Below are positions 60,202 to 61,401 of a DNA stretch of 64,000 nucleotides, in pieces. The position numbers and the translations under genes are program-made. Location: NCBI RefSeq assembly GCF_003334765.1, contig NZ_QOWT01000012.1, one strand, 5' to 3'. Below the pieces are notes generated by a model that did not search any database, was not told the DNA's origin, and was given only the letters and a program-made list of their open reading frames with translations. The stretch comes from Escherichia coli (GTDB taxonomy: Bacteria; Pseudomonadota; Gammaproteobacteria; Enterobacterales; Enterobacteriaceae). Every line of letters begins with the position of its first letter. Positions within the stretch are counted from its first letter, which is position 1.

Positions 60202-60696
60202 TTATTCGAAAGAGGCCGCAATGACTTCTCCTGTTTTTGCGTTGAAAACACAAAAGTATTGAAGCGGAGCTAGCATCCCCAAGCTGTTAACTACCTTAGC
60301 TTGTTGCCCAAATGCCTGAATAATCTTCGCGTTCTCATCGTGCCAGAGATAAGTATTAAATACAGGCGCTTCGCTTTCTTGCCACACATGGCGAAACTTC
60401 GCTTTCTCATCCATTACCTTTTTGCACTCCCTGACCGGGTTATGGTGCGTTTTCGCATAGCATTCCGGGTTGTCATCTGCACATACGATATCTTTTCGTG
60501 CTGTCTGATGCTCAGCACCTACAGCAGAAAAGGCGCATACGCCCAGCACCAATGAGAGAGTGCCCAGAGCACCCCATACAGTTGCGCGTAGCGTGCTGAT
60601 GTGCTGCTTTGATACAGCATGGGCAACTACACTATAACTGGCCCAGCTAATCGCGGCTCCCGCTGCAATCGGTAATAAAAAGTCTGCTCCCGTCAT
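60202..60696 (-). CDS. Small membrane protein with a Cys-containing extracytoplasmic domain, function unknown
   Basis: Start at the ATG at 60696 (RBS GAGGG) giving MTGADFLLPIAAGAAISWASYSVVAHAV… with two hydrophobic helices followed by a soluble domain (…CADDNPECYAKTHHNPVRECKK…). Confidence 0.5.
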   Translation of the reverse strand: MTGADFLLPIAAGAAISWASYSVVAHAVSKQHISTLRATVWGALGTLSLVLGVCAFSAVGAEHQTARKDIVCADDNPECYAKTHHNPVRECKKVMDEKAKFRHVWQESEAPVFNTYLWHDENAKIIQAFGQQAKVVNSLGMLAPLQYFCVFNAKTGEVIAASFE

Positions 60697-60936
60697 GATT
60701 CCCTCACTTTCCAAACCACATCGCGCCTGATAGCGAACGCTGGTGACGCCCAACCGATGATGATCATCATACTTGTTGGGTTTTAAATGTCACCATTGGT
60801 GTTTGTTTTGAATCAAAAAGGATTGTCATGATACAGCCGATGAATGCTAGTGACTAAGCTCGCTGAAGTGAGATTGGATTCAAAATATCTCATATGGAGC
60901 GTGGCCTTACAGTGGTCAAAATTGCACATTCAGTGC

Positions 60937-61401
60937 ATGAAAAAATCCCTGAGAATACAGTTTGGCGAGCGGGTAAAAGAACTGCGCATTGCCACCGGAT
61001 TGAGCCAAGAGGCCTTTGCCGATCGGTGCGGGTTTGCACGTAGTTATATGAGCAGAATTGAACGTGGTGGCTCTAATGCGTCTCTGGATGCGATTGAGGT
61101 GCTGGCTAACGCTCTGAGCGTTGAGCCGTGGCAGTTGTTAGCGCCTGGCCCATCTGAAGATAACGACTCGGAACTGTTGGTTCCATACGCAGCCGATGGT
61201 TCCTGTTTTCACCCCGGTTTGGCGAGCACCCGTGATGGTTCGTTTGGCGTAGGTGATAAAGCGGCTCAGAAGCGTTTTGGCACGTTTGCTGAAGCTCTTG
61301 AGTATCTTCGTAGCATGGAGACAGCAAAATGGCGTAGGCCTAATCCTAGCGGCAACTGGGGTATCGTATCAGCGGTTCGGTGGGACAAACTGAGAAAGTA
61401 G
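60937..61401 (+). CDS. XRE/Cro-family HTH transcriptional regulator with a C-terminal extension
   Basis: ATG at 60937 gives MKKSLRIQFGERVKELRIATGLSQEAFADRCGFARSYMSRIERGGSNASLDAIEVLANALSVEPWQLL (classic HTH_XRE); divergent from the membrane-protein gene. Confidence 0.7.
   Translation: MKKSLRIQFGERVKELRIATGLSQEAFADRCGFARSYMSRIERGGSNASLDAIEVLANALSVEPWQLLAPGPSEDNDSELLVPYAADGSCFHPGLASTRDGSFGVGDKAAQKRFGTFAEALEYLRSMETAKWRRPNPSGNWGIVSAVRWDKLRK

Follow-up and report, generated by a model that had tools for sequence, protein, structure and literature searches.

The divergent gene pair at positions 60202-61401 of a 64,000-nucleotide stretch of Escherichia coli DNA (assembly GCF_003334765.1, contig NZ_QOWT01000012.1; this whole stretch is called the window below) encodes a small membrane protein and a regulator with an XRE-type helix-turn-helix (HTH) domain. 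It occupies the right-hand end of a 7.3-kb island integrated at the tRNA gene leuX. We regard it as moderately probable that the pair makes up the conserved core on the right-hand side of a mobile island with defence genes and consists of an autoregulated controller and an envelope accessory protein. The element belongs to a known kind, the mobile defence island with a conserved core, and its backbone is a variant that is undescribed in the literature we found. An earlier, first-pass annotation of the same DNA had described the two genes as a repressor and its divergent target, and had compared them to abortive-infection and toxin-like modules.

A divergent gene pair at the end of a leuX island

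Both open reading frames (ORFs) of the pair are found in the ORF list and in the RefSeq calls, and the spacing given in the first-pass annotation is correct, with 240 bp between the genes (60697-60936) and 60 bp (60142-60201) between the membrane-protein gene and a convergent gene for a protein of 281 amino acids. The ORFs match RefSeq genes of E. coli Nissle 1917, annotated as 'membrane protein' (WP_000145203.1) and 'helix-turn-helix domain-containing protein' (WP_000749342.1), and the sequence from 59200 to 61950 is 100% identical to that of Nissle 1917, ATCC 25922 and many further strains. Both genes are genuine and under purifying selection: pairwise ratios of non-synonymous to synonymous substitution rates (dN/dS), taken over 14 orthologous loci, average 0.19 in the membrane protein and 0.07 in the regulator. 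A longer upstream frame of the regulator (185 amino acids) was rejected, since indels in the aligned sister loci disrupt that frame.

Two perfect 28-bp direct repeats, of which the left one lies at the 3' end of leuX, delimit the island. An integrase gene starts 49 bp past the tRNA, and the gene order between the repeats is tyrosine integrase (650 amino acids), NIPSNAP, DUF1643 pseudogene, serine recombinase, 281-amino-acid protein, membrane protein and regulator. Because the repeats enclose this gene set, the pair forms the right end of the island, with the regulator as its last gene. The features that define the island and the pair are:

54507-54591, plus strand: tRNA-Leu(CAA) gene leuX (ARAGORN; Rfam tRNA, 59.4 bits)
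54567-54594: attL core, left-hand member of the direct repeat (28 bp), formed by the leuX 3' end (repeat family D1)
54640-56592, plus strand: large tyrosine integrase of the backbone, a 650-amino-acid ORF (PHROG integrase, E 2.8e-32; RefSeq 'site-specific integrase', given there as a slightly shorter protein)
58722-59282, plus strand: serine recombinase of the backbone, 186 amino acids, resolvase/invertase type (NCBIfam Mpi-family invertase, E 6.4e-28, a match below the curated cutoff; RefSeq 'recombinase family protein')
60202-60696, minus strand: membrane protein, 164 amino acids (ORF; RefSeq 'membrane protein'; PHROG 20749, a group with no assigned function)
60937-61401, plus strand: regulator, 154 amino acids, XRE-type HTH plus C-terminal domain, last gene of the island (RefSeq 'helix-turn-helix domain-containing protein'; Pfam HTH_31, E 4.7e-14)
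61881-61908, plus strand: attR core, the right copy of the direct repeat at the island end, 100% identical to 54567-54594

The genomic contexts were surveyed with homologues of the membrane protein and of the regulator, together with a species-wide scan in which hits of a regulator profile were mapped by tblastn. The survey revealed that four backbone genes are shared. They encode a large integrase whose N-terminus is DUF6538, the serine recombinase, an exported protein and, divergently from the latter, the regulator. Integrase orthologues in the sister islands combine DUF6538 with Phage_integrase domains. The backbone recurs in E. coli, Yersinia, Edwardsiella, Kosakonia, Enterobacter, Pluralibacter, Ewingella, Serratia and Pseudomonas, and with different cargo it occupies other sites and hosts, for example thrW in E. 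coli UTI89 and islands of Yersinia, Edwardsiella, Kosakonia, Enterobacter and Pseudomonas. Enterobacterial islands that keep the allele of the serine recombinase found here share 83-92% identity in this protein, as compared to 71-75% in Pseudomonas. The membrane-protein family was met in 16 distinct chromosomal contexts, and in 15 of them its gene is adjacent to and divergent from that of the regulator, which bears out the divergent pair of the first-pass annotation and shows it to be conserved. Among 5426 complete E. coli genomes the regulator gene was found in 914 (ca. 17%), including Nissle 1917, ATCC 25922, UTI89 and O157:H7, and the membrane-protein gene in 571.

The cargo of these islands varies and is rich in anti-phage genes. 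The UTI89 thrW island carries Gabija (GajA/GajB), and other sister islands harbor a retron reverse transcriptase-TIR protein, a Hachiman-like helicase, PDC-M36A (DUF8370) with an OLD-type ATPase, and HNH, NUDIX, GTPase and Fic proteins. Here the cargo is the 281-amino-acid protein, which belongs to the DUF4062 family (see below). The defence context that the first-pass annotation ascribed to the pair is thus real. In several islands cargo genes follow the regulator on the same strand at a distance of 52-316 bp, and among the sister islands a methyl-directed restriction enzyme is encoded immediately behind the regulator.

Gamma-Mobile-Trio islands are mobile elements in which a conserved backbone carries varying defence cargo. 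The island described here shares integration at a tRNA, direct repeats, an integrase at one end and swappable anti-phage cargo with these islands and with P4-like satellites, satellites of the phage-inducible chromosomal island (PICI) type and pipolins. It differs from all of them in its backbone, which consists of the DUF6538-type integrase, the small serine recombinase, the exported protein and the XRE regulator with its extra domain. Pipolins are likewise mobile defence islands that combine a conserved backbone with variable cargo (PMC11551731). An identity as pipolin was rejected, since piPolB is absent and pipolins use a different tRNA-Leu site. No primase or replicase, piPolB or capsid-redirection genes were detected in the island (ORFs, NCBIfam, RefSeq). 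Literature searches with the accessions, with DUF6538, with NIPSNAP plus integrase and for leuX/thrW defence islands gave no description of the backbone or of either protein of the pair in the papers examined.

The regulator and its control region

The HTH domain of the regulator (residues 5-68) resembles the controller (C) proteins of restriction-modification systems and is 47% identical to C.AhdI. It is followed by 86 residues; the C-terminal extension noted in the first-pass annotation therefore exists, although it is shorter than the ca. 110 residues proposed there. Most of it forms a second conserved domain (residues ca. 80-152, window positions 61175-61392) with the order strand, two strands, helix, three strands and the motif WRRPNxxGNWG. 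In line with the first-pass annotation, which assigned no fold to the extension, sequence comparison recognised neither a Pfam family nor a solved structure related to this domain. It also occurs alone in proteins of 70-130 amino acids and in fusions with ASCH-like domains, with a DEDD-type exonuclease and with an alpha-proteobacterial N-terminal region (survey loci L055-L093). It is a mobile domain that Pfam does not cover and that merits a family definition.

The closely similar XRE-type five-helix HTH fold is what the regulator has in common with C.AhdI (PDB 1y7y), C.BclI and C.Esp1396I. Unlike these single-domain proteins of ca. 70-100 amino acids, it is twice as long and carries the extra conserved domain of 70 residues, and its gene belongs to the constant backbone of a mobile island instead of accompanying one restriction-modification system. 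The window contains no restriction-modification genes, a search of the island for restriction or methylase genes (ORFs, NCBIfam, PADLOC, RefSeq) gave none, and a nuclease gene lies downstream of the regulator only in some sister islands. In view of the second domain and the missing restriction-modification system, classification as a canonical C protein was rejected; upstream of the gene lie a conserved 64-bp block and a fixed inverted repeat (see below), and no C-box-like tandem palindrome was recognised.

The intergenic region contains the following elements:

60766-60793, minus strand: sigma-70-like promoter candidate of the membrane-protein gene (GTGACA, 16 nt, TATGAT; 10 of 12 matches in a consensus scan)
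60806-60816, no strand: left arm TTTTGAATC of an inverted repeat (I1), just upstream of the -35 hexamer of that promoter candidate
60873-60936, plus strand: conserved control block directly upstream of the regulator, a candidate promoter/operator that contains GATTCAAAAT and the invariant GAGCGTGGC
60877-60886: right arm GATTCAAAAT of the inverted repeat, inside the conserved block

Comparison of 13 loci of the membrane-protein type showed that the 64-bp block at 60873-60936 has a pairwise identity of 91.6%, against 68.4% for third codon positions of the regulator and 56.9% for the adjoining spacer (60819-60872). Much of the block, including the invariant GAGCGTGGC, is common to islands in which the regulator has another partner gene and to the islands of Pseudomonas; no Rfam family matches it. 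The first-pass annotation had suggested a search of the intergenic region for operator palindromes; the arms ATTTTGAATC and GATTCAAAAT of the inverted repeat found there stand at about -131 and -60 from the ATG of the regulator, at fixed positions in all 13 loci. Both hexamers of the promoter candidate for the membrane-protein gene are legible in the alignment of sister loci, and the site is kept in a plasmid fragment that lacks the regulator.

Taken together, the conservation of the block suggests that the regulator most likely autoregulates there, with binding to this sequence predicted. Control of the membrane-protein gene by the regulator is possible; the geometry does not indicate it, because the repeat arm sits upstream of the -35 hexamer and not over the core promoter. 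When further operator-like copies were sought in the window, GATTCAAAAT and GGAGCGTGGCC were found to occur at chance frequency. The 10-mer GATTCAAAAT at 60877-60886 is also part of the leuX anticodon arm (54537-54546), which is at chance level (6 matches as compared to 6.8 expected, with one mismatch allowed).

The exported protein and the explanations for the pair

Hydropathy and charge analysis of the membrane protein shows two hydrophobic segments (residues ca. 6-24 and 38-61) separated by a positively charged loop, on the basis of which both ends are predicted to lie outside. The label of two-helix membrane protein used in the first-pass annotation holds for these segments and misses the larger part of the protein: 100 of the 164 residues belong to a C-terminal globular domain. 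This alpha/beta domain (residues ca. 70-164) is modelled by AlphaFold2 with a predicted local distance difference test score above 90 and comprises two helices and five strands; it may have a cystatin-like fold, of the cystatin/NTF2-like/PepSY kind, and is predicted to face the periplasm. It is the best-conserved part of the protein, with four cysteines (C72, C79, C91 and C149) and several His and Trp residues that are invariant or nearly so in the alignment, and the four conserved cysteines fit the periplasmic placement.

No match to the membrane protein was found in Pfam, NCBIfam or PADLOC, tblastn against phage records detected no homologue, and comparison with characterised exclusion proteins gave no significant similarity in fold or sequence. 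A profile of the C-terminal domain, run against 1.84 billion representative proteins, retrieved 101 relatives. In those whose sequences were read, the domain is located at the C-terminus behind hydrophobic segments, and some add a charged linker, an N-terminal zinc ribbon or DUF4875. Some remote relatives consist of a cytoplasmic zinc ribbon, one membrane helix and then the domain. This domain order supports an extracytoplasmic location. Two remote relatives are encoded in prophages. In one case the gene is located next to tail-fibre genes where a P2/HP1-like prophage ends, in the other beside terminase genes and on the opposite strand.

The membrane-protein gene also occurs away from the regulator. 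On 42 plasmids it is present together with the recombinase gene and with 116 bp of upstream DNA, including the promoter-like site, and with IS1 in the place of the regulator; the encoded protein is 88.5% identical to the one studied here. Two survey loci on E. coli and Salmonella plasmids (L094, NZ_CP062909.1, and L095, NZ_CP044294.1) hold an island fragment with the membrane-protein gene, enclosed by insertion sequences. At both loci IS1 takes the place of the regulator; L094 has also retained the serine recombinase and is flanked by IS26 as well.

In the islands, the position divergent from the regulator could be assessed at 34 loci; 31 of these encode an exported protein there, and at least three unrelated families are represented. 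Fourteen loci have a protein of the membrane-protein type, 11 a two-domain secreted family, six a different small protein that bears a signal peptide, lipobox or membrane helix, and three a protein that is not exported. The two-domain family is found in O157:H7, Yersinia and Enterobacter, and Pseudomonas has its first domain only. Homology between the membrane protein and these alternative partners was rejected (hhalign probability 0). Soluble secreted proteins and lipoproteins, which fill this position in sister islands, would be unable to serve as membrane-damaging toxins, and the strong export bias points to a role shared by the proteins encoded there.

These observations lead to the following model for the autoregulated controller and its envelope partner. 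The controller-like N-terminal domain of the regulator would bind the 64-bp block before its own gene and so set its own level, and it may also set that of a cargo gene following on the same strand. The membrane protein would be made from its own sigma-70-type promoter and inserted in the inner membrane, with the disulfide-stabilised cystatin-like domain displayed to the periplasm. Instead of being a toxin held in check by the regulator, it may be an accessory envelope factor of the resident island, comparable to a prophage moron, for which an exclusion-type or envelope-protecting role seems most plausible. Lambda Bor, T4 Imm/Sp and P22 SieA are superinfection-exclusion or lysogenic-conversion envelope proteins. 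Like these, the membrane protein is a small envelope protein of an integrated element that has its own promoter-like site and is encoded on the strand opposite to its neighbours; the host element differs, being an island of 7 kb devoid of phage structural genes.

Several points speak against this view. A simple consensus scan for sigma-70-like promoters gave none for the regulator, and a controller box of the GACT/AGTC type is not evident. The tight, conserved adjacency and the shared inverted repeat fit direct control of the membrane-protein gene by the regulator equally well. Operator, promoter and membrane topology are predictions, the exclusion-type role is proposed by analogy from gene position and cellular location, and the plasmid copies of the membrane-protein gene could be silent.

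One alternative is that the exported-protein gene is simply another cargo slot, functionally unconnected to the regulator, and that the adjacency merely marks where insertion is harmless. The diversity at this position, with at least three unrelated exported families and a few non-exported genes, would agree with this, as would the occurrence of the regulator in 914 E. coli genomes against only 571 for the membrane-protein gene and a non-synonymous rate, relative to the synonymous one, that is 2.6 times that of the regulator. We nevertheless consider this doubtful, as the other slots contain cytoplasmic enzymes of many kinds whereas an exported protein is found here in 31 of 34 loci, and as neither the intergenic architecture nor the inverted repeat varies among the 13 loci of the membrane-protein type.

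A function in transfer or establishment of the island is equally improbable. The exported protein would then mediate entry exclusion of related islands or helpers, or act as a periplasmic adaptor resembling VirB8/TraM, and the regulator would control excision. Entry-exclusion proteins of conjugative elements are small, variable and located in the envelope, properties which fit a variable exported slot. An excisionase gene is not evident in the island, and the regulator or the serine recombinase might provide excision control. Against this stands the finding that the island encodes no relaxase and no recognisable transfer gene (ORFs, family libraries, RefSeq calls), and the remote relatives of the C-terminal domain occur in prophages and not in conjugative elements.

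The idea that the membrane protein is an abortive-infection or toxin-antitoxin-like toxin repressed by the HTH protein, possibly together with the DUF4062 gene, is quite unlikely. Small membrane proteins are common abortive-infection effectors, and the divergent adjacency in 15 of 16 contexts, the inverted repeat shared by both promoter-proximal regions and the defence-rich island would suit it. Against it, the gene and its promoter-like site are kept without antidote or repressor on 42 plasmids, and a Yersinia island remnant has the gene beside an internally deleted regulator. Unlike a small, mainly hydrophobic effector, the protein consists mostly of a conserved domain with cysteines that is predicted to be extracytoplasmic, and its position is taken in sister islands by soluble secreted proteins or by lipoproteins. 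The repeat arm is found ahead of the -35 hexamer and not over the core promoter, PADLOC has no match for the protein, and a DUF4062 gene is linked in only 2 of 16 contexts, related DUF4062 proteins being reported to defend alone.

If the pair is indeed the core of such islands, it should be annotated as backbone of defence islands and not as a defence system, and the regulator gene with its 64-bp upstream block could serve as a marker for small islands that move Gabija, retrons, Swarozyc and further systems among enterobacteria and pseudomonads. Two domains of the pair have neither a Pfam family nor a detectable solved relative, and the exported-protein slot is a defined place to seek new envelope-level exclusion functions. 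There is also a caution for annotation: a divergent HTH/membrane-protein pair beside a defence gene is, by itself, no evidence of an abortive-infection module. More tentatively, the regulator and the exported slot may mark an undescribed, widespread family of defence-carrying integrative islands in Proteobacteria, in which the slot proteins would form an overlooked class of anti-phage or anti-entry factors that act at the envelope and whose level is set by a controller-type regulator. Such a class, itself speculative, might embrace the two-helix cystatin-like protein, the two-domain secreted family of O157 and Yersinia, and small lipoproteins.

Neighbouring genes and further loci

The remaining genes of the island between integrase and membrane protein are:

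56725-57057, minus strand: NIPSNAP-family gene, which adjoins the integrase here, in O157:H7 and in the UTI89 (thrW) island
58063-58392, minus strand: DUF1643 gene, frameshifted here and intact in O157:H7
59296-60141, plus strand: DUF4062 protein, 281 amino acids, cargo (PADLOC PDC-S60, E 5.8e-27; Pfam DUF4062, E 3e-4)

In view of its position the NIPSNAP gene may be a further backbone gene. The convergent 281-amino-acid protein, to which the first-pass annotation had coupled the pair as a nucleotide-processing neighbour, is cargo and not a partner. A DUF4062 gene stands beside the membrane-protein gene in only 2 of 16 distinct contexts, and other cargo takes that position elsewhere. According to a 2026 preprint, DUF4062 proteins with a C-terminal winged-helix auxiliary domain, named Swarozyc, are TIR-like NADases which protect E. 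coli from phages when expressed alone, and Glu97 is needed in the Klebsiella protein (10.64898/2026.05.01.722283). The 281-amino-acid protein is of the Swarozyc type and shares with that system the N-terminal DUF4062 TIR-like domain, a weak winged-helix signal in the C-terminal region (Pfam) and the defence-island setting. It also has a Glu at position 97, which matches the reported catalytic residue by position, without alignment to KpSwz. The E. coli protein tested in the preprint (EcDUF4062), listed there by UniParc number only, may or may not coincide with the 281-amino-acid protein.

Between the regulator and attR (61402-61880) lie 480 bp without a credible ORF, where sister islands hold cargo. 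An imperfect copy of the att repeat (68%) is present at 61765-61792, 116 bp ahead of the true repeat. This segment is possibly an arm region for the integrase or a cargo slot that has lost its content.

Just beyond attR, at 62439-63263 on the plus strand, a 274-amino-acid gene product gives a full-length match to PADLOC PDC-S32 (E 5.6e-104) and is annotated in RefSeq as 'AbiJ-NTD4 domain-containing protein'. It is followed by a convergent ORF of 208 amino acids with no assigned function (63312-63938, minus strand; a hypothetical protein of 190 amino acids in RefSeq). The region 62439-63938 looks like a second, separate defence candidate of the leuX hypervariable region.

Neighbouring elements were also seen at other family loci. 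In E. coli O157:H7 (survey locus L096, positions 11468-16333), a gene for a phosphorothioate-dependent restriction endonuclease and a type II Zorya system (zorA2, zorB2, zorE) are located directly past the family island, beside a second integrase remnant; these genes show serial accretion of defence elements at this site. Yersinia enterocolitica (L002-L004) has two family islands in tandem, one complete with a secreted-protein partner, the other a remnant in which the membrane-protein gene stands beside a regulator gene cut to its last 21 codons.

Some hits came from assemblies with unexpected labels (L015, L018, L027 and L075), probably owing to contamination or mis-binning in the public records. 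Islands of the enterobacterial type are present on contigs labelled Collinsella sp. (100% identical to the E. coli island), Martelella alba and Chryseobacterium sp. A chromosome-level metagenome-assembled genome of 4.26 Mb, labelled Exiguobacterium profundum, contains a protein of the Rhodobacteraceae type.

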